Shown here piece after piece: positions 5,666 to 34,666 of a stretch of 64,000 nucleotides of DNA. The stretch's first letter is position 1. The number at the start of each line of letters is the position of its first letter. Made by a program: the position numbers and the translations under genes. Source of the DNA: Flavobacteriales bacterium. GTDB lineage: Bacteria; Bacteroidota; Bacteroidia; Flavobacteriales_F; PHOS-HE28. The stretch lies in NCBI GenBank assembly GCA_016717305.1, contig JADKFY010000010.1, positions 28,279-92,278 on the forward strand. The letters run 5' to 3'. Under the pieces are notes generated by a model. The model was given only the letters and a program-made list of their open reading frames with translations, had not been told where the DNA came from and did not search any database.

Positions 5666-8170
5666 ATGCAACGCAAGCTCTACGTCCTACTCTTCCTTGT
5701 GCTATTGCTCATAGCAGGTATTTGGTTCGCTGATCGTAAACTTAAGGGCCACGGACACCCCGGTCTTCCTACCTTTTTGCAGCAATGGTGGGTGAACTAC
5801 CCCGCATCTTTTGCCGTGGAACCAATGGTCGTTTCCATAACCGTTGAACAGGCCGATATCGACGCCCTTGAGGCCGTGGTACAGGCGGCACGTGAGCGCG
5901 GCGTGATCATGCCCGAGGGCAACGAATATGTACCGGCGATCTTGGAGTTCAATGGACAAAAGATCAAGACCAAGGTCCGGATCAAAGGCAAGATGAGCGA
6001 CCATGTCCAAGGAAGCAAATGGTCCTTCCGCGTCCTGACTAAGAAGGATGATGGCTTTCTGGGCATGCAGCGGTTCTCCTTGCAGCATCCCGGAACACGG
6101 AACTACTTGTGCGATTGGTTCTATCATCAACTGTCCCAAGGTGAAGGCATTATTGCGCTGCGGTATGGCTTTCTCCATGTCAATTTCAATGGCGAGGACT
6201 TGGGGGTTTATGCCTACGAGGAACACTTCGGCCCGGAGCTGTTGGTGAACAACGGTCGGCTGAACGGGCCTTTGTTCCGTTTCGACCCATCGTTATTCTG
6301 GGAACACCGGTTGAACATGATGAACAAGGTGCGGTACCACGAAGCATTCGGAGCCTACGAAGCTGCTGCGGTGGATGGGTTCGGCACAGGGAGTCTCGCA
6401 AAGGACTCGGTACAACGTAGGTATTTCGAGGAGGCCGTTGGGTTGATGGATTCGTTCAGACGCGGCGAACGCAAGGCTTCGGAGGTATTCGACGCGGACC
6501 TCATCGCGCGTCGGCATGCGCTCTTGGACCTGGTGGGCGGCCACCACAGCATGGATTGGAGCGATGTCAAATTCTACTTCGACCCGGTGCTCAAGCGCGT
6601 TGAACCGATCTCGTATGAGAGTTTCAGTGCATACCCCATTAAGGAATTGGCTGGCACCGGCAAGTATTCGGGTAAGCGATCTTCTTGGATGGACCTGCAC
6701 ACCGCATACTTCAATGATCCTGAAATTTTCCGCGCCTACGTCCACCATTTGGAACGCATGTCATCACCCACCTACCTGGACAGTGCTTTCACCAAACTCG
6801 CCCCGGCCTTGGACAGTGCTTCCGCATTGATCTACCGCGAATTCCCGTACAAGGAGCTGGATCGTTCAATTTACTACAAGAACGGCGCCTTGATCCGGCG
6901 GATGCTTGATGTGCCCAAAGGCTTTCACGCTTACTACGATGGAGGCGTGGACACTGTGAACATGACCGTGATCCCGATCGAGAGCCTCCCGATCGAAATA
7001 CATGGGTTGATCGACAAGGACGGCACGATACTCCCGCCGATCAGCGATCAGAACAGAGACTTACAAGCAACCATCGTTCCGAGCAGGATCGGCGGGGAAG
7101 TAGGAAAACCCATGACCGTCCGCGTGCCGATCAATGGGAAATTGGATCTGACCGCGGGCGTTCCATTGCGTATTTCATACAGCGTTCTGGGCGCATCCAT
7201 CCGCAAGGAGTTGGAGGTGTTCCCGTATGCCTATCTCGACAAGATCCAATTGCCATTGGTAACAGGAACGAACACGACCGACTTGCGGAACATCAGCTAC
7301 CTGCAAGTGGACGATCAAGAGAAGACGATCACGATCCTTCCAGGCAACTGGACCTTGGGTTCGGATCTGTACTTGCCCAACGGATATACCATAATGGCGA
7401 CCGCTCCATTACGGTTGGACTTCGTGAATGGTGCTCGATTGATCTCCAGGTCCCCCATGCTATGGAGCGGTGTGGAGGACCTGCCGATCGTACTGCATTC
7501 CTCCGATCAAAGCGGTGGTGGGCTCATAGTGCTTAGCAGCAGGGGGAGCAGTTCGTTCTACCGGGTGCGGTTCGAAGGCTTTGGAAGCAGTAGGATCGGG
7601 ACTCCATCCATCGTTCTACAAGATGCGGATGTCCACCTGAAGGAGTGTGACCTGGGCGAGGCTCGTGGACGGGACCTGCTGTTGGCCGTTCGGAGCAAGA
7701 TCGGAATGGAGGATGTTTCCTTCACCGGGGGAATGGACCAATTGACATTGGCCTATTGCACCACCACCATGGAAAAAGTAGGTGGCTTGGGCGCTGGAGA
7801 TGATGCCCTTTCCGTGAAAGGTGGATCAGCGGTGATCTCAGCGCTTCGTGTTGAAGGAGCCATGGGCACAGGGATCAAATTGGACGAATACGCCATTGTT
7901 GAATTGGTTGATCCAATGATCACATCCAAAGCCGATGCCGCCAGAGTGTCAGAAGGAGCAACACTGAAGGCAAAGGGAGGCTCCTTCACCAGTGAAAAGG
8001 AACAAGCATTGGATGTGGAACCGGAGCACGATCGCCACGGACCATCACAGGTTGAGTTGGATAGCGTGAAGACGAATGCTCCAACGCAGCCTTATCAGAT
8101 CGGTAAAGGGAATACGGTGTTGATCAATGGGATGGAAATGGAGCCGACCCTTTCCACGAAGGCACCATGA
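5666..8170 (+). CDS. CotH-family kinase domain protein with long C-terminal extension
   Basis: ATG at 5666 gives the TM anchor MQRKLYVLLFLVLLLIAGIWF. CotH blocks: KVRIKGKMSDHVQGSKWSFRVL, RYGFLHVNFNGEDLGVYAYEEHFGPELL, and HHSMDWSDVKFYFDP. The C-terminal ~300 aa is Gly/Ser-rich and looks like beta-helix repeats. The six-frame ORF begins at 5375, but the upstream part is His/Arg-rich junk. Confidence 0.7.
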   Translation: MQRKLYVLLFLVLLLIAGIWFADRKLKGHGHPGLPTFLQQWWVNYPASFAVEPMVVSITVEQADIDALEAVVQAARERGVIMPEGNEYVPAILEFNGQKIKTKVRIKGKMSDHVQGSKWSFRVLTKKDDGFLGMQRFSLQHPGTRNYLCDWFYHQLSQGEGIIALRYGFLHVNFNGEDLGVYAYEEHFGPELLVNNGRLNGPLFRFDPSLFWEHRLNMMNKVRYHEAFGAYEAAAVDGFGTGSLAKDSVQRRYFEEAVGLMDSFRRGERKASEVFDADLIARRHALLDLVGGHHSMDWSDVKFYFDPVLKRVEPISYESFSAYPIKELAGTGKYSGKRSSWMDLHTAYFNDPEIFRAYVHHLERMSSPTYLDSAFTKLAPALDSASALIYREFPYKELDRSIYYKNGALIRRMLDVPKGFHAYYDGGVDTVNMTVIPIESLPIEIHGLIDKDGTILPPISDQNRDLQATIVPSRIGGEVGKPMTVRVPINGKLDLTAGVPLRISYSVLGASIRKELEVFPYAYLDKIQLPLVTGTNTTDLRNISYLQVDDQEKTITILPGNWTLGSDLYLPNGYTIMATAPLRLDFVNGARLISRSPMLWSGVEDLPIVLHSSDQSGGGLIVLSSRGSSSFYRVRFEGFGSSRIGTPSIVLQDADVHLKECDLGEARGRDLLLAVRSKIGMEDVSFTGGMDQLTLAYCTTTMEKVGGLGAGDDALSVKGGSAVISALRVEGAMGTGIKLDEYAIVELVDPMITSKADAARVSEGATLKAKGGSFTSEKEQALDVEPEHDRHGPSQVELDSVKTNAPTQPYQIGKGNTVLINGMEMEPTLSTKAP

Positions 8171-9225
8171 GGAGGGTGTTTCCATTCGTGGTCCTCTTGC
8201 ACTTAGGGAACATCACGATCGCCCAAGTTTCGCCCTACACGGGGTTGGCGGTGGTGCCACCTGATAGCACAGGCAGTTACCGACTGTTGATCGGTGGACA
8301 CTTCCACGGGGCCAGCAGCAACACCAGTGGGTTTCCCGCGGCCACCTTGCTTGCCAATATCGGAACGCTCAATGCCACGAACGCCAACGTATTCTTGAGC
8401 ACCGGTGATCTTTTCCTGCGTCCGGATCGTGACAGCGTCCGCTATACTACCGCTCTCTTCGAAGAGTTGAAGTTGCCTCTTTTCAACGCACCGGGTAACC
8501 ACGATCTGGAAGGTAGCGCATACCATTCCGCAACCCGTATGCCAGTGATGATCCCAATGGGTGGGGATCGCATCATCCTATTGGACACCGAGCGGGACAA
8601 CAGTGATGTAAGCGGTGATCAGCTGCAACAGATCATAGATGCCGAACAAGCCGCAACTGAAGGTCACTTGCGACACCTGTTCATCATAAGCCACAGACCG
8701 GTCTGGTCAGAGGGCGAACCGAAGTACGGAGACCTCTTCAGAGGCAATACGCGATCGCTCACCGGGAGCAATTTCAAAAAGGACGTGCTCCCTGTATTGC
8801 AACGGATTGCCCAGCATGCAAACGTGTATTGGATCAGTGGTAGCATGGCGGGCAGGGCGCCGGCCAGTATTTTCTTTCAGGAGCACGAGCAGGGCATCAC
8901 GTTCATCCAAAGTGCAATTCGCGACGAATTGCGCGATGCCGTACTGATCGCGGATGTTTCGAAGCTTCCATCCTCCTCCGGAGAGGGCGAAGGGGTGAGG
9001 CCCCCCAGTGTTAAATGGACGGGCCTATCGCTTACGGGCCAACCCCTGGAACCTGTTCAGAGCTACGATGCAGCATGGTGGAAAGCACATCAAGGCACAG
9101 CCGAACCGTTCGCTTGGAGACGCATCCCCTATTTGATCAAAAAGACGGTAACCAACCTGAACTACTGGTATGGGTTCGGCACCGCAGTGTTGCTGCTACT
9201 ATTGGGTTGGCGCATCCGGAGATAG
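8167..9225 (+). CDS. calcineurin-like metallophosphoesterase, membrane-anchored
   Basis: ATG at 8167 overlaps the TGA of the upstream gene (ATGA). Signal peptide present. Motifs GDLFLRPD and GNHDLEG (GDxx / GNH[DE]) and a C-terminal TM segment (WYGFGTAVLLLLLGW). Confidence 0.7.
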   Translation: MRRVFPFVVLLHLGNITIAQVSPYTGLAVVPPDSTGSYRLLIGGHFHGASSNTSGFPAATLLANIGTLNATNANVFLSTGDLFLRPDRDSVRYTTALFEELKLPLFNAPGNHDLEGSAYHSATRMPVMIPMGGDRIILLDTERDNSDVSGDQLQQIIDAEQAATEGHLRHLFIISHRPVWSEGEPKYGDLFRGNTRSLTGSNFKKDVLPVLQRIAQHANVYWISGSMAGRAPASIFFQEHEQGITFIQSAIRDELRDAVLIADVSKLPSSSGEGEGVRPPSVKWTGLSLTGQPLEPVQSYDAAWWKAHQGTAEPFAWRRIPYLIKKTVTNLNYWYGFGTAVLLLLLGWRIRR

Positions 9226-24327: not shown

Positions 24328-25116
24328 ATGCAGACCGAAAAAATTCTAAAGTACCTATTCGCAGTGGTCTTCACTTTCGCAATGTTCGAAGGTGCTGTAA
24401 TGGCCCAAGGAATTCATGTCGACATTGGTGTTCAACATCTTGAAACCGACCAGATCCAGATTTGGCTGATCTCAGATTCGACGTGGACGGGTTACTTGTC
24501 TTCTATTCAATGGACCCTTAGGTGGGATGAGGTCTCAACCGCAACACTAAGTGATCTTGTAGCTTCTTCATCCGTGGCTTTCCTTGATGGCCTTCCACAG
24601 TCCGGACCAACCGGTGATGCCAATGGTTACCACCATGCCTTGTTCTCCGCTGTTCCTGGCCAGAACGCCACATCCTTTATTGCAGATGTACCGTTGCTAC
24701 TGGGCACCTTCAATGTGACTAACGGTCCTGGCAATTTTGAGATCGCCGATGATGCGTGGACCCTTGCCAACAATGGCGATTACTATATTTCCTTGAATGG
24801 CCAGCCAAGTACCGGCGAAATCGTGGACCTCACCACGGCTGTTCAGACCACCGTGTCCTATTCTTCAAGTGCAACGCTATTCCCAAATCCTACGAATGGC
24901 AACTCGGTACTGACCGTGGAATTGGAACAAGCTGGCTCCTTGGATATTCTGGTGTTCGATCCAGCAGGTCGTTTGGTCGAGCAACGAAAAGTTACCGCCA
25001 ATGCAGGGGAGTTCCGCTACACCATGGCCAGCCAAGCATTGGCCGAAGGGCTTTACTCCATTCAGGTGGATGGTCCTGGAGTGTTCGCCACGGTCTCCTG
25101 GTTGGTAGTTCGTTGA
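24328..25116 (+). CDS. T9SS type A C-terminal-domain secreted protein (hypothetical)
   Basis: Signal peptide. C-terminus ...ATLFPNPTNGNSVLTVELEQAGSLDILVFDPAGRLVEQRKVTANAGEFRYTMASQALAEGLYSIQVDG matches the Por_Secre_tail pattern (NPT.., D..GR.V, L..G.Y). Confidence 0.6.
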   Translation: MQTEKILKYLFAVVFTFAMFEGAVMAQGIHVDIGVQHLETDQIQIWLISDSTWTGYLSSIQWTLRWDEVSTATLSDLVASSSVAFLDGLPQSGPTGDANGYHHALFSAVPGQNATSFIADVPLLLGTFNVTNGPGNFEIADDAWTLANNGDYYISLNGQPSTGEIVDLTTAVQTTVSYSSSATLFPNPTNGNSVLTVELEQAGSLDILVFDPAGRLVEQRKVTANAGEFRYTMASQALAEGLYSIQVDGPGVFATVSWLVVR

Positions 25117-25129
25117 AGTATCCTTTGGA

Positions 25130-26389
25130 ATGTTCAATTGCCACGTTCCCTTGCTTTCATTGCTGGCTTTACTTAGCCCTTTTGGTGCCGTACTTGGCCA
25201 GAACTGGGAAGTGTTCGACATGGGCAACAGTCCTATTCCGAGCACAACGGTGAATGCTATTTCCGAAGATGGGTCGGGAGGGATCTGGGCAGGTACGGAT
25301 TGGGGGCTTGCACATCGCGACGCTGTCGGCACGTGGGAAGTTTTCCAAACGGCGAACTCGGAGATCCCCAGCAACTTCATTACGTGCTTGGCCTCGGACA
25401 GCACGGTGCTCTGGGTCGGAACGCAGGTCAATGGCTTGGCGAAATGGGATGGAACTGAATGGACGAATTACACCACAGCGAATTCGCCACTCCCGGAGGA
25501 TGTGGTGCGTGATCTATTCGTTGACCACCGCCATTGGTTATGGGTAAGTACTGCAAGTGGCTTGGCGGCATACACCGGGAGTGAGTGGTTCGTGTACGAC
25601 GGTACCGATGAAAGTCAGAATGACTTGATCCTGAACACGAGCAGTACAAGTTGTGTGGCGGTGCGTGAAGATGGGACCATTTGTTTGGGTACGATCAATG
25701 GAGGGCTTCATTTTCTGACCGATACGAGTGTCTTTTTCCTTACTATTTCGCAAGATGGTTTCTTCGACAACACGGCCACCGATGTCCTCTTCGATCCCGT
25801 GAATGGTGAACGTTGGGTGAGCACGCCATCGGCTGGGCTGCTAAGGCAACAAGGGCCTGTATTCGGCGGGGTGTGGTACAGATGGAGTACCGCTATTGGA
25901 TTCCCTAGCAATAGCATTGGCGCTATTGACATGGACCAGCAAGGTCGTGTCTGGTGCGCCACACAAGCGGCAGGGGTGATCAGGGTCGAAAGTGATGGTT
26001 CCCATGTTCAATTGGACCAGGTCACATCCGGACTGCCGGACAACGAGCTAAGATCGATATTGACTACTTCCTCGGACGATGTTTGGGTGGGAATGATTTA
26101 TGGAGGTCTGGCTCGCTACATTGTAAACGTGGGAGTCGAAGAGTTCGGAAATGAACTATCCCTGAAGATCTTTCCGAACCCGACATCAGATCGTTGTACT
26201 GTTCAGTTCACCAGTTGTGCTGCTGATCTCAATTGGAACTTGGCCAGCGGCGACGGTAAGGTTGTACAACAAGGCAGGAGTATGGGTTCAATTTTGGAAC
26301 TGGACTTGTCGGGAACCGATCCCGGAACCTATATTCTTGAGTTAGTTCAAGATGAACTTGTTCGGCATGGGAGAATTGTAATACAATAG
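25130..26389 (+). CDS. beta-propeller (two-component-regulator-propeller-like repeats) T9SS-secreted protein
   Basis: Signal peptide. Repeated ...W.GT..GL..WDG..W..YT..NS.LP... blades. C-terminal T9SS domain (LSLKIFPNPTSDRCTVQF...GTYILELVQDELVRHGRIVIQ). Confidence 0.6.
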   Translation: MFNCHVPLLSLLALLSPFGAVLGQNWEVFDMGNSPIPSTTVNAISEDGSGGIWAGTDWGLAHRDAVGTWEVFQTANSEIPSNFITCLASDSTVLWVGTQVNGLAKWDGTEWTNYTTANSPLPEDVVRDLFVDHRHWLWVSTASGLAAYTGSEWFVYDGTDESQNDLILNTSSTSCVAVREDGTICLGTINGGLHFLTDTSVFFLTISQDGFFDNTATDVLFDPVNGERWVSTPSAGLLRQQGPVFGGVWYRWSTAIGFPSNSIGAIDMDQQGRVWCATQAAGVIRVESDGSHVQLDQVTSGLPDNELRSILTTSSDDVWVGMIYGGLARYIVNVGVEEFGNELSLKIFPNPTSDRCTVQFTSCAADLNWNLASGDGKVVQQGRSMGSILELDLSGTDPGTYILELVQDELVRHGRIVIQ

Positions 26390-26453
26390 GACCTTCCTTG
26401 ACTTGGACGGTCCTGCATGTTACTTTAGCGGACCCCAAAACAACATTCAGCTG

Positions 26454-28172
26454 ATGATGAAACAACTACGTGCGCTGGCTCTCGTCTTGTTACTTATGTT
26501 GGGCCTTCCGGAATATACCAGTGCGCAATGCACACTGACGAATGCAACGAGCTGTGTTTGCGCCACTGCAGGCCAGACGAATTGTGATCTGCTCCCGGAC
26601 ATCACCATCTCATGGAAAGGACTGGAGAGTTATGGTTCATATGGTGGACCCAGTGAATATCCCCAGAACCACGCGACCAATCCGGGAAGATTACGTGTTA
26701 CGGGTTCCACTCCTAATATTGGTAATGGTCCGTTGAATGTGCGTGGCGTGAACAGGAACGGATATCGCTTTTTCCTTTGTGGCAACGAGCTTGATTCGAT
26801 CTATGACGTGAATGCAACGAACGATTATGTGCCATGCCCGGATGCAAAACAACTCATCCTGCAGCGTGTCTATCATAAGAATGGAAATGCGATGAGCTTT
26901 ACGGAGCGCTTTGCTGGAACTATGACCTATCACCCTACGCACGGCCACAATCACGTGGATGACTGGGTCACCTTCTCGCTACGTTCCGAAATACCAGGAG
27001 AAACAAATGCATTGAACTGGCCAATTGTGGGGACGGGGGCGAAGGTGGGATTTTGCTTGATGGATTACCATAGCTGCACTGCGAGTATTGCTAATGGTCA
27101 TTGTCGAACATCGCAAGAATACCAAGGTGGAACGGCCTTGAATTCAACAACTAACTATCCGAATTACGGCTTGGGAGGTGGGAGCTACAATTGCAGCCAA
27201 GTTTCACAGGGCATCACAGTGGGCTATACGGATGTTTACTGGGAGGAGTTGGATGGAATGTGGATCAATATTCCACCTGGCACCTGCAATGGGAACTACT
27301 GGGTGGTAATGGAAGTGGATCCTCGCAACAACTTCATAGAAGAGAACGAGAATAACAACTGGACCGCGGTTCCTTTTACCCTTACCCAACAAGTGCCGGG
27401 GGGCGGCCCATTTGCCAGCATCACGGCGTCCGGTGCTACCACCACATGCGCTGGTACACCCCTTACACTTACCGCAGCTTTCGGTACGTCCTATGCATGG
27501 AGTAATGGTGCTACAACACGGACGATCACACCGACCACATCAGGTTCATATACCTGCACGATATCAGGAAATTGCGGTACGGATGCGGCAACCACTTCCG
27601 TTACCTTCTTGAACGCTGCCACTCCGGTTGGGACCGGTGCACAGATCCCAGGTCCAGGGCAGGCCACCTTGCAAGCAACGGGGGGCAATGTACATTGGTA
27701 CGATGCCGCATCAGGCGGTGGCGAAGTAGGTACTGGAAATCAATTCACTACACCATTGATCAGTGGAACAACGACCTATTGGGCGGAGAACCAGGTGGTG
27801 CAACCCGGCCTGTCCGGAAATGTGGGAAAGACAAATAATAGCGGTGGCGGTGGATATGGCACGTTCGACCAACATTTGGTCTTCGATAGCTTTCGACCAT
27901 GCAAGTTGCGCAGCGTGAAGGTATATGCGCAAAGCGCCGGGAATAGGACGTTTCAAGTGCTCACTTCGGCCGGTGATCTGGTCGCCCAAGCCACTGTGAA
28001 TGTGCCTAATGGCGAGTCGCGAGTAACCTTTGAACCTGGATCTGCCACAGGCGACCGATTGCGCTTGAAAGTGACGACGACCAGTATCAACATGTACCGT
28101 AACAACCAGTGGAACCGCATTTCCTTACACCATCAACAACTTGGTCAGTGTAAGGACCTCCAGCGCGGGTGA
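26454..28172 (+). CDS. lysyl-oxidase-like (copper amine oxidase LOX-fold) secreted protein with Ig-like modules; 3' end possibly degraded
   Basis: ATG at 26454 gives MMKQLRALALVLLLMLGLPEYTSAQ. LOX-catalytic-domain blocks: HPTHGHNHVDDW (Cu-His cluster), KVGFCLMDYHSC....GHCR (compare KASFCLEDTSCDYG), and DGMWINIPPGTCNGNYWVVMEVDPRNNFIEENENNN (compare DCQWIDITDV.PGNY.L.V.VNP...ES.Y.NN). C-terminal Ig-like and beta-sandwich modules follow, but no T9SS tail. The ORF stops, and its continuation appears in other frames. Confidence 0.6.
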   Translation: MMKQLRALALVLLLMLGLPEYTSAQCTLTNATSCVCATAGQTNCDLLPDITISWKGLESYGSYGGPSEYPQNHATNPGRLRVTGSTPNIGNGPLNVRGVNRNGYRFFLCGNELDSIYDVNATNDYVPCPDAKQLILQRVYHKNGNAMSFTERFAGTMTYHPTHGHNHVDDWVTFSLRSEIPGETNALNWPIVGTGAKVGFCLMDYHSCTASIANGHCRTSQEYQGGTALNSTTNYPNYGLGGGSYNCSQVSQGITVGYTDVYWEELDGMWINIPPGTCNGNYWVVMEVDPRNNFIEENENNNWTAVPFTLTQQVPGGGPFASITASGATTTCAGTPLTLTAAFGTSYAWSNGATTRTITPTTSGSYTCTISGNCGTDAATTSVTFLNAATPVGTGAQIPGPGQATLQATGGNVHWYDAASGGGEVGTGNQFTTPLISGTTTYWAENQVVQPGLSGNVGKTNNSGGGGYGTFDQHLVFDSFRPCKLRSVKVYAQSAGNRTFQVLTSAGDLVAQATVNVPNGESRVTFEPGSATGDRLRLKVTTTSINMYRNNQWNRISLHHQQLGQCKDLQRG

Positions 28173-28240
28173 CCAGTATTACTATTACTGCTACGACTGG
28201 GACGTAGCAGAACCTGATCCTGACCTGTGCCAGTGCTCGG

Positions 28241-29005
28241 GTGCCGGTTGTAGCCGAAGTCTCCAATGGTGTAGTCGTGAATGTGAAAGCATTCCTGGAA
28301 GGGCCATTTGACACCGCCAACGGGTTGATGGCGGATTCGCTCCGTGTGAATGGACTTATTCCTTTGTCGGAGCCCTTCAGCGCAATGGGTTTCACACAAG
28401 CTGGTGGAGGAGGCGGTGAGGTTATGCCTGCAAGTATGCTAACAACCACAGGCAACAATGCAATAGTGGATTGGGTGTTGGTTGAACTACGTAATGCTTC
28501 AGTCCCGGCGACTATCGTTGCCACACAAAGCGCATTGATCACGCGGTCGGGGAATGTCATTTCCGCCAACGGGAGTCCTGTGCGATTGAGCGTGCAGAAT
28601 GGAAATTACTACATCGCCCTTCGGCATAGGAACCATTTCGGTGTCATGTCCGCAGTACCACTTTCCCTATCAGCTTCGGCCACAAGCTTTGATCTTTCCT
28701 TGCTCAGTACGGCCACGTGGGGCACGGAGGCCCGTAAGACGAAGGGTGCCGTGCAGACACTGTGGTCAGGAGAAGTGGTGCGCGATGGAAAGATCATGTA
28801 TACCGGTTCGGGTAATGATCGTGATGTAATGCTTGTCACCATTGGTGGTGCTGTAGCTACCAATGTTGCAAATGGCTACTTGCGCGATGACCTTAATCTG
28901 GATGGTCGGGTCAAGTATACCGGTGCGGCCAATGATCGCGACCTGATCCTTGTCAACATCGGCGGAATGGTCGCTACCAACATTCGCCATCAACAGTTAC
29001 CTTGA
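28241..29005 (+). CDS. dockerin-like EF-hand repeat domain ORF lacking signal peptide (possible orphaned C-terminal fragment)
   Basis: GTG start only; no ATG until codon 29. The frame is open from 28208. Two DxNxDGxVxYTG..NDRD..LV.IGG repeats (DGKIMYTGSGNDRDVMLVTIGG / DLNLDGRVKYTGAANDRDLILVNIGG). Different frame from the upstream LOX-like gene. Confidence 0.35.
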   Translation: MPVVAEVSNGVVVNVKAFLEGPFDTANGLMADSLRVNGLIPLSEPFSAMGFTQAGGGGGEVMPASMLTTTGNNAIVDWVLVELRNASVPATIVATQSALITRSGNVISANGSPVRLSVQNGNYYIALRHRNHFGVMSAVPLSLSASATSFDLSLLSTATWGTEARKTKGAVQTLWSGEVVRDGKIMYTGSGNDRDVMLVTIGGAVATNVANGYLRDDLNLDGRVKYTGAANDRDLILVNIGGMVATNIRHQQLP

Positions 29006-29061: not shown

Positions 29062-31749
29062 ATGACCAAAACGACTCTACGGTCCATGCGTGCATTCTGT
29101 ACGATCGCACTAATGACCTTGGGATATTCCCACAGCAGTGCCCAACTGAATGTTTCACTATTGGCTACGGCCGATCCGGAAATATTCCAGTTCCAATGGA
29201 CCAATACCAGCGCAACCGAGACTTACGATGCAGTTTGGAGCGCGACATGGGCAGTTCGGTGGGATGTTTCGGCTGGCGGGGATATTTTGTCAGAGAACGA
29301 CCTTGTTGCGTTATGCAGTTCTTCAAGGGCTCCGATCTCGCCTAATGACATCGATAATCTGACCACTACGCAAGGTCCATACCGATATGCAGCGTTCACG
29401 ACAGTTGCGATCCCAGCGTTGGGTGCTCCTTGTGGACTTGCACCCGGGCAATCCCGGATCTGGCACCAGATCAAGATCACCGGGATATCCGGATGCCCGA
29501 ATATCCAATTGTCCCCGGATAATATCGTAAACGGTCAGAACATATCGTACTACGCAGCGATAGGTGGCATCCTTAAAACCGGGGTATATGCTTCCGGGGT
29601 TATCGGCGCACCTTTTACGGTTACACCAGGCACCTATGGGCCAACCTGCACGACAGGTAGCCCGATCGCATTGGGTGGAACACCTGCAGGAGGAACATGG
29701 AGCGGGCCAGGGGTATCTGGTAGCACGTTCACGCCATCTGCGGCTGGAAATCAAATCCTCACATATACGGTTACACAAGGTGGTTGCACAGTGGCTGCGA
29801 ACACCACGATCAATGTTACGGCAGCACCAACTGCCACGATCAGCTACAGCGGTTCGCCGTTTTGTAGCACCGGTGGTACCGCTAGCGTATCGCGCACTGG
29901 TAATGCAGGCGGGACGTACACGGCTCCTGCAGGTCTGACGATAAACGCCAGCACGGGCGCCGTGACCTTGGCAACCAGCACGGCAGGTACGTACACGGTG
30001 ACCTACACGATCGCAGCAGCCGGTGGCTGCGCACAGTTCCAAACCACTGCCTCTATCACGGTAACGGCCGCACCTACAGCGACGATCAGCTACAGCGGTT
30101 CGCCGTTTTGTAGCACCGGAGGTACCGCTAGCGTTTCGCTTACTGGTACTGCAGGCGGGACGTACACGGCTCCTGCAGGTTTGACGATCAACCCTGGTAC
30201 GGGTGCCGTGACCTTGGCAACCAGCACGGCAGGTACGTACACGGTGACCTACACGATCGCAGCAGCCGGTGGCTGCGCACAGTTCCAAACCACGGCCTCT
30301 ATCACGGTAACGGCCGCACCTGCTGCCACGATCAGCTACAGCGGTTCGCCGTTTTGTAGCACCGGTGGTACCGCTAGCGTATCGCGCACTGGTACTGCAG
30401 GCGGGACTTACACGGCTCCTGCAGGTTTGACGATCAACGCTGGCACGGGTGCCGTGACCTTGGGAACCAGCACGGCAGGTACATACACGGTCACGTATAC
30501 TATCGCAGCAGCCGGTGGTTGCGCACAATTCCAAACCACGGCTTCGATCACGGTTACGGCCGCGCCTGCAGCGACGATCAGCTACAGCGGTTCGCCGTTT
30601 TGCAGCACTGGAGGCACTGCGAACGTGACTCAAACAGGAACGGTAGGCGGCACCTACACCGCTCCTGCAGGTTTGACGATCAACGCTGGCACGGGTGCCG
30701 TTACCTTGGGATCCAGCACGGCAGGTACATACACGGTCACGTATACTATCGCAGCAGCCGGTGGGTGCACACAATTCCAAACCACGGCCTCGATCACGGT
30801 AACGGCCGCGCCTGCAGCGACGATCAGCTACAGCGGTTCGCCGTTTTGCAGCACTGGAGGTACTGCGAACGTGACTCAAACAGGAACGGTAGGCGGCACC
30901 TACACCGCCCCTGCAGGTTTGACGATCAACGCAGGCACGGGTGCCGTGAACTTGGCCACTAGCACAGCAGGTGCTTACACCGTGACTTACACAATAGCGG
31001 CTGCTGGCGGATGTGCACAATTCCAGACCACAGCCTCCATCACAATTACTACTGCGTCCGGTGCCACGATCAGCTACAATGGTTCGCCATATTGCAGCAA
31101 CGCCGGCACGGCGAGTGTGAACTTGACGGGTACGAGCGGCGGTACGTATAGCGCACCAGCAGGCCTAAGCATCAACTCAAGCACCGGTGCTGTCAACTTA
31201 GCGTTGAGCACAGCCGGAACGTATACAGTTACTTACACTATGGCTGCCACCGGTGGTTGCCCACAGGCGACGGCCACCACATCCGTTTCTATCACAGCGG
31301 CATCACTTTGGTACCAGGACCTGGACCAGGACGGATTCGGTGATCCAGGCGTAAGTTTGCTTGAGTGCAACCAACCCGTAGGCTATGTTTCGAATAACAC
31401 GGACAATTGTCCAGCAATACTTGGTGTGATCGGCTCGATTTGCAACGATGGAAACCCGAACACCGAGAACGACCAGATCAATGCTTCCTGTCAGTGTGTT
31501 GGGAGCGCATTACCCACGGATTGTGCTGGTGTAGTTAATGGTACTGCCTCGGTCGATCAGTGCGGAGTGTGCAGTGGTGGAACGACGGGCCAGATCCCGA
31601 ACGCCAGTTGCACGGATTGTGCAGGTGTGATCAACGGAACTGCAACTCGCGGCGGACACCTTATAGACAACTGCGCAACGTGCGTAGGTGGCAACACGTC
31701 TTACCGGTTGTACGCTTGTGACCCGACAACTGGCAACATGCTGTGGTAA
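29062..31749 (+). CDS. giant T9SS adhesin-like protein, N-terminal segment (signal peptide + ~7 Ig-like 80-aa repeats + start of Cys-rich repeats); interrupted by frameshift
   Basis: ATG at 29062 gives MTKTTLRSMRAFCTIALMTLGYSHSSAQ. Repeats APTATISYSGSPFCSTGG...GTYTVTYTIAAAGGCAQFQTTASITVT x6-7. The frame ends at the TAA at 31747, while the same repeat family continues in the +1 frame (see next feature). Confidence 0.6.
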   Translation: MTKTTLRSMRAFCTIALMTLGYSHSSAQLNVSLLATADPEIFQFQWTNTSATETYDAVWSATWAVRWDVSAGGDILSENDLVALCSSSRAPISPNDIDNLTTTQGPYRYAAFTTVAIPALGAPCGLAPGQSRIWHQIKITGISGCPNIQLSPDNIVNGQNISYYAAIGGILKTGVYASGVIGAPFTVTPGTYGPTCTTGSPIALGGTPAGGTWSGPGVSGSTFTPSAAGNQILTYTVTQGGCTVAANTTINVTAAPTATISYSGSPFCSTGGTASVSRTGNAGGTYTAPAGLTINASTGAVTLATSTAGTYTVTYTIAAAGGCAQFQTTASITVTAAPTATISYSGSPFCSTGGTASVSLTGTAGGTYTAPAGLTINPGTGAVTLATSTAGTYTVTYTIAAAGGCAQFQTTASITVTAAPAATISYSGSPFCSTGGTASVSRTGTAGGTYTAPAGLTINAGTGAVTLGTSTAGTYTVTYTIAAAGGCAQFQTTASITVTAAPAATISYSGSPFCSTGGTANVTQTGTVGGTYTAPAGLTINAGTGAVTLGSSTAGTYTVTYTIAAAGGCTQFQTTASITVTAAPAATISYSGSPFCSTGGTANVTQTGTVGGTYTAPAGLTINAGTGAVNLATSTAGAYTVTYTIAAAGGCAQFQTTASITITTASGATISYNGSPYCSNAGTASVNLTGTSGGTYSAPAGLSINSSTGAVNLALSTAGTYTVTYTMAATGGCPQATATTSVSITAASLWYQDLDQDGFGDPGVSLLECNQPVGYVSNNTDNCPAILGVIGSICNDGNPNTENDQINASCQCVGSALPTDCAGVVNGTASVDQCGVCSGGTTGQIPNASCTDCAGVINGTATRGGHLIDNCATCVGGNTSYRLYACDPTTGNMLW
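29815..31290 (+). repeat. tandem ~240-bp coding repeats (Ig-like domain units, ~85-95% identical)
   Basis: The block ...acgatcagctacagcggttcgccgttttg... recurs about every 240 bp (29838, 30078, 30318, 30558, ~30820, ~31065). Confidence 0.7.
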
Positions 31750-34666
31750 CGGTGCTTATGGAGACTTTGGCGGAACAGCTGTAATTGACAATTGCGCAAC
31801 GTGCGTAGGCGGCAACACCGGCTTGACCGCATGTGTCCAGGATTGTAACGGTGTCTTCGGCGGAACAGCCTTTATAGACAACTGTGCAACGTGCGTAGGT
31901 GGTAACACCGGTCTTACTGCATGTGCCGTTGACTGTAACGGCGTCTTCGGTGGAACAGCCTTCCTCGACAACTGTGCAACATGCGTAGGTGGTAACACTG
32001 GCCTCACCGCTTGTGTCGCTGACTGTAATGGAGACTTCGGCGGAACCGCTGTGATCGATAACTGCGCAACGTGCGTAGGCGGCAACACCGGCTTGACCGC
32101 ATGTGTCCAGGATTGTAACGGTGTCTTCGGCGGAACAGCCTTTATAGACAACTGTGCAACGTGCGTAGGTGGTAACACCGGTCTTACTGCATGTGCCGTT
32201 GACTGTAACGGCGTCTTCGGTGGAACAGCCTTCCTCGACAACTGTGCAACATGCGTAGGTGGTAACACTGGCCTCACCGCTTGTGTCGCTGACTGTAATG
32301 GAGACTTCGGCGGAACCGCTGTGATCGATAACTGCGCAACGTGCGTAGGCGGCAACACCGGCTTGACCGCATGTGTCCAGGATTGTAACGGTGTCTTCGG
32401 CGGAACAGCCTTTATAGACAACTGTGCAACGTGCGTAGGTGGTAACACCGGTCTTACTGCATGTGCCGTTGACTGTAACGGCGTCTTCGGTGGAACAGCC
32501 TTCCTCGACAACTGTGCAACATGCGTAGGTGGTAACACTGGCCTCACCGCTTGTGTCGCTGACTGTAATGGAGACTTCGGCGGAACCGCTGTGATCGATA
32601 ACTGCGCAACGTGCGTAGGCGGCAACACCGGCTTGACCGCATGTGTCCAGGATTGTAACGGTGTCTTCGGCGGAACAGCCTTTATAGACAACTGTGCAAC
32701 GTGCGTAGGTGGTAACACCGGTCTTACTGCATGTGCCGTTGACTGTAACGGCGTCTTCGGTGGAACAGCCTTCCTCGACAACTGTGCAACATGCGTAGGT
32801 GGTAACACTGGCCTCACCGCTTGTGTCGCTGACTGTAATGGAGACTTCGGCGGAACCGCTGTGATCGATAACTGCGCAACGTGCGTAGGCGGCAACACCG
32901 GCTTGACCGCATGTGTCCAGGATTGTAACGGCGTCTTCGGCGGAACAGCCTTTATAGACAACTGTGCAACGTGCGTAGGTGGTAACACCGGTCTTACTGC
33001 ATGTGCCGTTGACTGTAACGGCGTCTTCGGTGGAACAGCCTTCCTCGACAACTGTGCAACATGCGTAGGTGGTAACACTGGCCTCACCGCTTGTGTCGCT
33101 GACTGTAATGGAGACTTCGGCGGAACGGCCTTGATCGATAACTGCGCAACGTGCGTAGGCGGCAACACCGGCTTGACCGCATGTGTCCAGGATTGTAACG
33201 GTGTCTTCGGCGGCTCTGCATTGTCAGGAACGCCTTGTGATGATGGTGACCAATTGACCTTGAATGACACTTGGACGCCAAATTGCAGTTGTGTTGGTGT
33301 ACCTGTTGGTTGCCCGCAATCGGTCATCTTGGTGTTGAGCACGGATGACGCTCCAGAGGAGACTACATGGGAGATCATCCCTCAAGGAGGAGGAACACCA
33401 CTATGTTCAGGTGGCCCTTTCAATGGCGTCCCAAATGCAGCGATCGGACAACAGTGCTGCTTGAACGACGGATGCTATGAATTGCGCGTGATGGACAGTG
33501 CCGGCGACGGTATGACCACGGGCGGCTATGTCCTCAAGACGGGCGGTGCTGAACAGGAGCGCATCATCGACAATACCAATGATGGGGTCTTCGGTTCTGT
33601 GAGCCAGGTTTCCGGTGGACAAGGCTTCTGTCTACCGATCGGAACCGACAGATTGATCTTCGCTCATTGTGACCGTTTGTTCTGGGAGAATTACAAGTAT
33701 GTTGTAGCAACCGCAAACGCGGCTGTTAGTGCGACATGGGTACCGAATGGTGCCAACAACGTGCAACCGGCCAACAGCGGTTATGAGTTCTGGTTCTTCG
33801 ATCCTGATGGAACCTACTCCTATCGTGTATTCCGGAGCCACAACGTGAGCAATGGATTTTCACCTGCGAATGCTACTCGTGCGTGCCACTTGAAGATCAA
33901 TGCATGGTTTAACTCCGCATTGACACCGTTGATCCCCACGAACAAGACACTGAACGTTCGGGTCCGTGGTCGAGTGAGCGGGTTGAATGCTGAATTCGGC
34001 CCCGCATGTCGCTTCCGGATCGATCCCGTCCTTGCGGCATGTCAGCCGACAGCATTGGTAAATCAACCGAATCTGCCGGAATACTCTTGTGGAGTGGTCA
34101 AGCAATTCGGCGGAACGGATAAGGTCTGGGCATGGGCACGTCCTGGGGCTACGCGCTACCAGTTTGAGTTCACCTTGCCAGCGGAAGGGAATTTCTTGAA
34201 AGTGGTAACGAATACATCCTACTTCGCTACCTTGAATTGGACCGTGGATCCCCTGATGCCCGGAGTTACATACTCAGTTCGGACGCGTATAAGCAAGGAC
34301 CAAGGGAACACTTGGTGCGCTTGGGGTGACGAATGCCTCGTAACGATCAGTTCAAACGTAGCCGGACCGCAAGGCGGTTCCAGTATGATCGCTGGTTCAC
34401 CCGCCCTAACGGCTTATCCGAATCCGAACCGTGGGGACCTCATCATGATCAACATCACGAATGTGGGCAACATGGTGGATCGTGTAGGTGTGGAGTTCTT
34501 CGACCTGTATGGCAAGAAGGTGATCTCCAGCACTATTCCAGCACAAGAAGGCGCCTTTACCACTGGTCTGGACCTTTCCAGCGGAAGCCTTAGCAGCGGT
34601 GTGTACTTGATGCGCGTAACGGCCGGGGACTATGTTACCACGGAGAGGATCGTGATCCAACGTTGA
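31688..34666 (+). CDS. giant T9SS adhesin-like protein, C-terminal segment (Cys-rich 30-aa repeats x~17, beta-sandwich domains, T9SS type A tail)
   Basis: The frame is open from 31688 (GTG) and overlaps the upstream segment by 62 nt. Repeats FGGTAxIDNCATCVGGNTGLTACVxDCNGx. C-terminus ...AYPNPNRGDLIMINITNVGNMVDRVGVEFFDLYGKKVISSTIPAQEGAFTTGLDLSSGSLSSGVYLMRV is a Por_Secre_tail. Confidence 0.6.
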   Translation: MATRLTGCTLVTRQLATCCGNGAYGDFGGTAVIDNCATCVGGNTGLTACVQDCNGVFGGTAFIDNCATCVGGNTGLTACAVDCNGVFGGTAFLDNCATCVGGNTGLTACVADCNGDFGGTAVIDNCATCVGGNTGLTACVQDCNGVFGGTAFIDNCATCVGGNTGLTACAVDCNGVFGGTAFLDNCATCVGGNTGLTACVADCNGDFGGTAVIDNCATCVGGNTGLTACVQDCNGVFGGTAFIDNCATCVGGNTGLTACAVDCNGVFGGTAFLDNCATCVGGNTGLTACVADCNGDFGGTAVIDNCATCVGGNTGLTACVQDCNGVFGGTAFIDNCATCVGGNTGLTACAVDCNGVFGGTAFLDNCATCVGGNTGLTACVADCNGDFGGTAVIDNCATCVGGNTGLTACVQDCNGVFGGTAFIDNCATCVGGNTGLTACAVDCNGVFGGTAFLDNCATCVGGNTGLTACVADCNGDFGGTALIDNCATCVGGNTGLTACVQDCNGVFGGSALSGTPCDDGDQLTLNDTWTPNCSCVGVPVGCPQSVILVLSTDDAPEETTWEIIPQGGGTPLCSGGPFNGVPNAAIGQQCCLNDGCYELRVMDSAGDGMTTGGYVLKTGGAEQERIIDNTNDGVFGSVSQVSGGQGFCLPIGTDRLIFAHCDRLFWENYKYVVATANAAVSATWVPNGANNVQPANSGYEFWFFDPDGTYSYRVFRSHNVSNGFSPANATRACHLKINAWFNSALTPLIPTNKTLNVRVRGRVSGLNAEFGPACRFRIDPVLAACQPTALVNQPNLPEYSCGVVKQFGGTDKVWAWARPGATRYQFEFTLPAEGNFLKVVTNTSYFATLNWTVDPLMPGVTYSVRTRISKDQGNTWCAWGDECLVTISSNVAGPQGGSSMIAGSPALTAYPNPNRGDLIMINITNVGNMVDRVGVEFFDLYGKKVISSTIPAQEGAFTTGLDLSSGSLSSGVYLMRVTAGDYVTTERIVIQR
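31763..33215 (+). repeat. near-perfect 270-bp higher-order tandem repeat (3 x 90-bp Cys-rich units), ~5.4 copies
   Basis: gtgcgtaggcggcaacaccggcttgaccgc recurs at 31801, 32071, 32341, 32611, 32881 and 33151 (exact 270-bp period). Only 2-3 nucleotide differences are visible across copies. Confidence 0.85.

Follow-up and report, generated by a model that had tools for sequence, protein, structure and literature searches.

The region at 26454-29005 (+ strand) of the window, the 64,000-nucleotide stretch of Flavobacteriales bacterium DNA analysed here, is one gene. From its sequence, the gene is predicted to encode an 849-aa (amino acid) secreted multidomain lysyl-oxidase-like protein of an uncultured Flavobacteriales bacterium. 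The protein consists, in order, of a signal peptide, a lysyl-oxidase-like copper/lysine tyrosylquinone (LTQ) amine-oxidase domain, two immunoglobulin (Ig)-like domains, a β-sandwich domain, and a C-terminal module formed by a further β-sandwich and dockerin-like repeats. In the deposited sequence the reading frame is broken by single-base insertions and deletions (indels). With a probability of about 0.88, this fragmentation is a consensus or polishing artefact that arose from the blended reads of two strains, and the gene would be intact in the organism and not a pseudogene. The intact gene belongs to a large, completely uncharacterised bacterial lysyl-oxidase-like (LOX-like) family with a fixed β-propeller partner.

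One gene across three reading frames

The open reading frame (ORF) list and a three-frame translation place the coding sequence in frames 3, 1, and 2 in succession, which agrees with the layout given in the initial annotation. Frame 3 stays open from two start codons (ATG ATG) at 26454 until a TGA at 28170-28172; the ORF start listed further upstream in this frame, a TTG at 26403, is a mechanical one. Frame 1 is open at ~28075-28311, and a plausible protein is read there (SGTAFPYTINNLVSVRTSSAGDQYYYYCYDWDVAEP). Frame 2 is open from 28208 and carries the ORF 28241..29005.

The three frames were spliced by eye into a joined sequence of 849 aa. This sequence shares 98% identity with P0001 (849 aa, from a Flavobacteriales metagenome-assembled genome, MAG) over 100% of the length. 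It also matches more than 100 proteins of 837-881 aa, with 48-87% identity, 94-100% coverage, and E-values of 0 to 1e-250; nearly all of these homologues contain PF01186 and PF19081. Because the joined sequence matches P0001 and more than 100 full-length proteins, the three-frame coding layout is far beyond chance. Five contigs of the same population (L001-L005) were retrieved by the exact sequence of the upstream neighbour. The gene is a single 849-aa ORF in L001, and L006-L009 have single ORFs of 849-860 aa. The annotation "lysyl oxidase family protein" has already been given to some of the orthologues.

The initial annotation had offered two explanations, a decayed gene or a single protein of ~850 aa split by frameshifts, and the continuous ~850-aa homologues bear out the second. 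A natural stop followed by an independent downstream gene was looked for in the homologues, and they were found to be continuous. The downstream ORF, previously described as an orphan, is the conserved C-terminal module of the same protein.

Four single-base indels within 190 bp

The window was compared with L001 base by base. There are 45 differences in 2.9 kb, and 39 of them lie within 28029-28324. The whole overlap with L001 (15.86 kb) contains 62 mismatches and only four indels, all at 28029-28218. The same four indels are seen against L002, L003, L004, and L090. Four 1-base indels (~28029, 28058, 28104, and 28218) were found where two frameshifts had been proposed as one alternative. Two alleles of the gene, A and B, occur in the population, and the features of the broken part are as follows.

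27068..28324, + strand: allele-variable segment; allele A in L001, L004, and L090, allele B in L002 and L003
28027..28029, + strand: indel 1, an extra base, +T at 28029 (ACC[T]TTG), not present in L001, L002, L003, L004, or L090
28053..28236, + strand: mosaic patch, in which the window switches between A and B about 16 times (site-by-site allele calls)
28057..28059, + strand: indel 2, -1 at 28058, at a B-to-A allele switch (GACCGA-TTGCGC); frame 3 is regained
28104..28106, + strand: indel 3, an extra base, +A at 28104 (GTAAC[A]ACC); changes frame 3 to frame 1 and makes the TGA at 28170
28218..28219, + strand: indel 4, an extra base, +T at 28218 (CCTGA[T]CCTGACC); changes frame 1 to frame 2

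Indels 1 and 2 compensate each other. Between them ten codons are out of frame, and the window reads FEPGSATGDR where P0001 reads LNLDLPQASN. This compensated pair (+1 at ~28029, -1 at ~28058) sits inside the first ORF and had been overlooked before. Therefore, the true coding path runs through frames 3, 1, 3, 1, and 2.

The disruption was not reproduced in any of five independent assemblies of the same population, all of which are intact: L001 (NCBI), L004 (ENA), and L090 (JGI) with allele A, and L002 (JGI) and L003 (Logan) with allele B. The JGI metagenome contigs were also scanned for exact matches to a degenerate sequence in which the A inserted at 28104 was optional; the single contig found does not have this A. 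Outside the indels the rest of the gene is ~99.9% identical to the intact alleles.

The frame changes might in principle be biological, if ribosomes shifted frame in a programmed way or if two or three separate genes occurred here naturally. Apart from the existence of the frame changes, nothing further supports this explanation, and it is extremely improbable. All of the homologues, including those with 98% identity, are single continuous ORFs; there are four shifts in alternating directions; and relatives of the L071 type, which have another C-terminus, are continuous as well. Programmed frameshifting was rejected because of this continuity of all homologues.

Two alleles and a mosaic patch

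Alleles A and B have 206 nucleotide differences, all in 27068-28324 (by 100-base block, the densest is 41 of 126). They are identical outside this segment, which corresponds to nucleotides 613-1869 of the gene. The synonymous divergence (dS) is 0.73 and the nonsynonymous divergence (dN) is 0.07, giving a dN/dS of ~0.1, with no indel between the alleles. Such high divergence without an indel indicates that both alleles should be functional and old. It implies that the variable segment would be an old divergent import by recombination, with both versions under purifying selection.

The genomes carrying alleles A and B are ~99.8% identical outside the variable segment. P0384 is a further natural mosaic of the LOX-like gene, with a divergent N-terminus.

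Every A/B-variable site in the window was classified by allele. Up to 28050, over 130 sites in a row are of allele A, and the final 16 (28243-28324) are of allele B. The alternating 190-bp patch holds all four indels. In the five-way alignment, each of the three inserted bases falls on a site where A and B differ, and can be explained by the base of A and that of B having been set side by side. At indel 1, A has ACC-TTG, B has ACT-TTG, and the window has ACCTTTG. At indel 3, A has AAC-ACC, B has AAC-AAT, and the window has AACAACC. At indel 4, A has TGA-CCTG, B has TGA-TATG, and the window has TGATCCTG. The changes specific to the window are four indels and one substitution in the 190-bp patch, and four indels and three substitutions in the whole segment 27068-28324. 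The 4:1 ratio of indels to substitutions in the patch is the reverse of natural coding-sequence divergence.

The window might also hold a real recombinant A/B allele with a breakpoint at ~28050-28240; polishing errors would then account for no more than the indels and part of the fine-scale switching. The clean A sequence upstream and the clean B sequence downstream of the patch are in keeping with such an allele, and natural mosaics of the gene exist (P0384). However, a recombinant allele looks the same as a contig that simply blends two strains. We regard this explanation as possible but doubtful; the conclusion that the gene is intact in vivo is unchanged by it.

Consensus artefact or pseudogene

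In the preferred reading, the reads of two co-existing alleles would have been blended during assembly, and four 1-base consensus or polishing errors would have been left within 190 bp. The source is very probably a Nanopore-assembled MAG polished with Racon and medaka. The last ORF of the window gene is 100% identical to MBK9763867.1 (IPO87_11000), which is recorded as a separate 242-aa "hypothetical protein" in an NCBI Flavobacteriales MAG. Other homologues with IPxxx tags come from records with isolate names of a Danish activated-sludge long-read study (e.g., Aved_18-Q3-R54-62_MAXAC.228_sub, with contigs named "tig…"). That study used Nanopore reads, CANU assembly, and polishing with Racon, medaka, and Illumina-Racon; it calls its own MAGs "chimeric population bins (not strains)", affected by platform errors (PMC8012365). 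We infer that the window is a member of this MAG series.

The indel load of the series is illustrated by L006, which belongs to it, and L007, which is of the same species with an identical LOX-like protein. Over 22.5 kb the two assemblies are 99.82% identical, and their alignment has 7 gap openings. In L006, the IPI00-series MAG, but not in L007, three neighbouring genes are split (154+313 aa, 696+1110 aa, and 188+75 aa). The short-read contigs stop inside the Cys-rich repeat downstream of the gene (L001 ends at window position 30988), which is consistent with the window being a long-read assembly.

Several points weigh against an artefact. The absence of the indels in the organism is shown indirectly, through assemblies. 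What ties the window to the Nanopore MAGs is the 100% protein match together with the series of locus tags, rather than its own record. Three of the four indels are outside homopolymers, which sets them apart from classical Nanopore homopolymer errors. Finally, natural recombination is common in this gene, as the A/B alleles and P0384 show, and part of the A-to-B switch could therefore be real.

If the frameshifts were true mutations, the gene would be a recently inactivated pseudogene in this strain and the downstream ORF its remnant, as the initial annotation had proposed first. The frames are truly disrupted in the deposited sequence, NCBI annotates the last ORF as a protein of its own, and the gene is a recombination hot spot, where recombination junctions can be mutagenic. 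Nevertheless, pseudogenisation is improbable. Neutral decay would spread substitutions and indels along the gene; here four indels are clustered in 190 bp with none elsewhere in 15.9 kb, and the near-identity of the rest of the gene to intact alleles leaves no time for such decay. The excess of indels over substitutions, the inserted bases that duplicate the alternative allele, and the five intact assemblies also argue against it. Moreover, ~16 allele switches in 190 bp are unlike the products of homologous recombination. Together the indels bear the signature of a blended two-strain consensus.

Lysyl-oxidase-like catalytic domain

The features of the protein upstream of the C-terminal module are listed below.

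26454..26525, + strand: Sec signal peptide, MMKQLRALALVLLLMLGLPEYTSA followed by QC; predicted mature N-terminus Gln25
26526..27398, + strand: lysyl-oxidase-like catalytic domain, aa 25-315 (Pfam, Foldseek, and profile alignment to 5ze3)
26940..26954, + strand: putative copper-binding H163-G-H165-N-H167 (HGHNH); aligns with LOXL2 HRHYH; 60 of 60 homologues
27042..27044, + strand: Lys197, putative LTQ lysine (GAKVGFCLMD); aligns with K of GHKASFCLED; 59 of 60 homologues
27237..27239, + strand: Tyr262, putative LTQ tyrosine (GYTDVY); aligns with Y of GCWDMY in LOXL2; 60 of 60 homologues
27411..27791, + strand: two Ig-like domains, the second being Pfam Ig_7 (CHU_C-associated)
27801..28240, + strand: β-sandwich domain, aa ~450-600, the part broken by the indels; pLDDT 81-95 in the model of P0001

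The AQC at the predicted cleavage site is nearly invariant among the 60 homologues. The cleavage site is a prediction in keeping with the Bacteroidetes "Q-rule".

The lysyl oxidase (LOX) catalytic domain proposed earlier is real. Its motif blocks are located where they had been placed, with GYTDVY...WINI...NGNY...VDP...EENENNN at ~27237-27350. The Pfam profile PF01186 (Lysyl_oxidase) matches the window ORF with 39.1 bits and the intact P0001 with 37.3 bits, above the cut-off of 20.4. The AlphaFold2 (AF2) model of P0001 was built on the 60 homologues, and its mean predicted local distance difference test score (pLDDT) is 82.8. A Foldseek search with this model matched human LOXL2 (5ze3_A and 5ze3_B) with a probability of 1.00 and E-values of 6e-6 and 2e-5, over 246-289 columns with 16-19% identity. 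A profile of the N-terminal 325 residues was aligned to 5ze3, and conservation was counted in the 60 homologues. Ten cysteines are conserved alongside the catalytic His, Lys, and Tyr residues. In LOX enzymes, the Lys and Tyr are the precursors of the lysine tyrosylquinone cofactor. The profile and fold matches and the conserved residues make a catalytically competent LOX-type amine oxidase the best reading of the sequence.

Some points limit this reading. The PF01186 match covers aa 244-308 only, at the end of the profile (positions 128-192 of 204, its final third). We infer the activity and substrate of the enzyme, the formation of its cofactor, and what the C-terminal module does. In the PDB sequences, LOX was reached by profile and fold searches and not by a single-sequence phmmer search with P0001.

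The protein would be exported by Sec. The LTQ cofactor might be matured from Lys197 and Tyr262 beside the copper site of His163, His165, and His167. The enzyme would then oxidise primary amines to aldehydes, probably on lysine side chains of extracellular or surface proteins, and it probably acts with the β-propeller protein encoded next door.

The Ig-like region is predicted by AF2 as β-strands with pLDDT 84-94, and its profile matches Ig domains in the PDB. Pfam Ig_7 (PF19081) scores 39.9 bits over aa 394-446. No NCBIfam family was found for any fragment of the window gene.

LOX homologues had been described as rare in bacteria, which does not hold here. A collection with one genome per species was scanned for relatives. 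A relative was confirmed at 266 stretches, and 80 loci were fetched (L010-L089).

C-terminal dockerin-like module

The C-terminus does show the dockerin-like resemblance noticed earlier, as a partial likeness in motif and fold. The C-terminal features are the following.

28241..29002, + strand: C-terminal module of ~245 aa, aa ~596-849, a β-sandwich and a dockerin-like pair of repeats; formerly the "orphan" ORF
28778..29002, + strand: two tandem repeats of ~39 aa (…YTGxxNDRDxxLxxIGGxVxTN), read from the sequence; the second follows D-L-N-L-D-G

The repeats in the window read YTGxxNDRDxxLVxIGGxVATN, and the protein ends in a conserved QLP. The Y/G/N/D/R/D positions are invariant in both repeats, and AF2 predicts a helix after each repeat. 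The loop of the second repeat is DLNLDG. That of the first is degenerate here (VVRDG) and D-x-N-x-D-G in other members; the loop is ~6 residues longer than the canonical one. Modelled alone with the family alignment, the module has a pLDDT of 91 and a predicted template modelling score (pTM) of 0.89, and forms a β-sandwich followed by two loop-helix repeats. The best PDB folds found by Foldseek are the type II X-module-dockerins 2b59_B, 5g5d_B, and 4u3s_B, with probability 0.97-0.98, template modelling (TM) score 0.55-0.57 by target, and 231-236 columns, and an E-value of only 0.01.

The module had no family match in the Pfam and NCBIfam releases searched. Dockerin_1 (PF00404) gave no match at E<=1 for the 265-aa ORF, and none at E<=10 among eight 85-aa tails from members of the module family. 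The motif, the repeat period of ~39 aa, and the fold resemble dockerin, while the sequence-profile test for membership fails.

The module is similar to the clostridial X-module-dockerin (C. thermocellum CipA/ScaA; 2B59, 5G5D, and 4U3S) in its position at the extreme C-terminus, its Ig-like β-sandwich, and its two tandem loop-helix repeats with a D-x-N-x-D-G loop. It differs from clostridial dockerin in the absence of a Dockerin_1 match, the longer loops, the degenerate first loop of the window protein, and the Gram-negative host. A likeness to scaffoldins is also found: P0136 has a Pfam Cohesin domain (59.9 bits, aa 443-553) directly upstream of the same module at aa 604-850.

An exhaustive phmmer search with the module found 10,052 representative proteins at E<=1e-3, of which 1,874 reach E<=1e-30, with lengths from 255 to 3,447 aa. 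The module ends at most 3 residues from the C-terminus in 260 of 264 fetched proteins (P0121-P0384), and ~250 of the 260 have a terminal [EQA]Q[LVI]P. What precedes the module varies widely: the 67 members scanned do not all have any one Pfam family in common. The N-terminal partners include β-propellers, metalloproteases, phosphatases, PKD and GEVED proteins, and the one cohesin-domain protein. A hidden Markov model of the module found no second copy in the 64-kb window. A dockerin-like or type IX secretion system (T9SS)-related description of the module was not found in the literature, which is not proof that none exists.

In the sister enzymes L071-L089, from Crocinitomicaceae-like MAGs, aa 1-602 (LOX, Ig, and β-sandwich) are conserved and are followed by an Ig-like domain and Por_Secre_tail. 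The L071 gene at 5944-8295 is an example of such a swap of the C-terminal targeting domain. Since Por_Secre_tail and the module take each other's place, the module is probably a surface-tethering or targeting device, which would hold the enzyme at the cell surface or direct it there. We suggest only tentatively that the module might be an undescribed docking or targeting tag of the cell surface across these Flavobacteriales, carried by thousands of otherwise unrelated secreted proteins.

Neighbouring genes

The gene order is kept across the relatives at 51-64% protein identity. It starts with a CHU_C protein, IMPDH, a rotamase, a hypothetical protein, a second rotamase, and a MoxR ATPase. These are followed by a 262-aa T9SS cargo protein, a 419-aa Reg_prop β-propeller with a T9SS C-terminal domain, the LOX-like enzyme, and a giant T9SS surface protein. 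GAPDH, sigma-70, and HtrA on the opposite strand end the order. The two genes next to the LOX-like gene in the window are:

25130..26389, + strand: secreted Reg_prop β-propeller with a T9SS C-terminal domain (Reg_prop 62 bits and Por_Secre_tail 27.2 bits in Pfam)
29062..34666, + strand: giant surface-protein gene, with a frameshift at ~31700-31760 and Por_Secre_tail at the end

Among the 80 fetched loci, a β-propeller homologue was found within the fetched flank (up to 6 kb) in 76, namely in 58 of the 61 loci of the full-length type and in 18 of the 19 of the Por_Secre_tail type. It is directly adjacent in the 12 loci where positions were read, on the upstream side in full-length loci and on the downstream side in Por_Secre_tail loci. 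The β-propeller is the tightest neighbour link, which suggests that it and the LOX-like enzyme form a functional pair.

The giant gene is also split in the window: one ORF of 915 aa is in frame 1 and another of 992 aa in frame 2, with the Cys-rich repeat of the gene read in two frames on either side of ~31700-31760. In L007 and L008 the orthologue is one uninterrupted ORF, of 1858 aa and 1959 aa respectively, that closes with a T9SS C-terminal domain. The split is probably a second frameshift of assembly, located where a near-perfect array of Cys-rich repeats begins. Two minus-strand ORFs in the giant gene, of 540 aa (31756-33378) and 565 aa (29323-31020), look like spurious antisense ORFs driven by the repeats. 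Elsewhere in the window, the overlapping ORF pairs 4176/5375 and 13712/13788 were inspected as candidate frameshifts and look like ordinary spurious overlaps.

Comparison with known LOX and T9SS proteins

The window protein shares with human LOXL2 (PDB 5ZE3) the PF01186 match, the fold, the His-x-His-x-His motif, the LTQ Lys (GxK…FCLxD) and Tyr (…D-x-Y), and several aligned invariant cysteines. It differs in its low sequence identity, and has neither SRCR domains nor a propeptide. Unlike in animal LOX, the catalytic domain is N-terminal here and is followed by Ig-like, β-sandwich, and dockerin-like modules, and the bacterial host has no collagen or elastin.

An earlier survey (Grau-Bové et al. 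2015, PMC4448552) had Bacteroidetes in its list of bacterial clades that bear LOX, and it reported that most prokaryotic LOX proteins consist of the LOX domain alone. HTU-LOX of the archaeon Haloterrigena turkmenica is an active, Cu-dependent amine oxidase that is sensitive to 3-aminopropionitrile and has relaxed specificity (PMC6452851). Like these homologues, the window protein is prokaryotic and combines a LOX domain with a signal peptide. Its family differs from the surveyed prokaryotic LOX in being a conserved five-module protein of 850 aa with a fixed β-propeller neighbour. LOX in Bacteroidetes is therefore not new, but the fixed five-module architecture differs from the published single-domain picture.

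The protein also resembles T9SS cargo: it is a secreted Bacteroidota protein of several domains, Ig_7 among them, and genes for T9SS cargo lie on both sides of its own gene. Por_Secre_tail is present in the neighbours at 24328, 25130, and 31760-34663, and in the relative L071. In contrast to T9SS cargo of type A (Por_Secre_tail, PF18962) or type B (CHU_C, PF13585), the window protein has no detectable T9SS C-terminal domain; no Pfam or NCBIfam match to a T9SS sorting domain was found in the window ORFs or P0001.

Implications

The results call for caution with frameshift "pseudogenes" in long-read MAGs. These can be consensus artefacts concentrated where strains differ, and are exposed by side-by-side comparison with short-read assemblies. 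The C-terminal module is a very widespread tag without a family in the Pfam and NCBIfam releases searched, and merits a study of its own, as do the pairing of LOX-like enzyme and β-propeller and the allelic dimorphism. The LOX-like enzymes are candidates for protein crosslinking in flocs and biofilms. If the module binds cohesin-like receptors, there might be a cellulosome-like surface protein network in these Gram-negative bacteria, with a lysine-crosslinking oxidase among its components.

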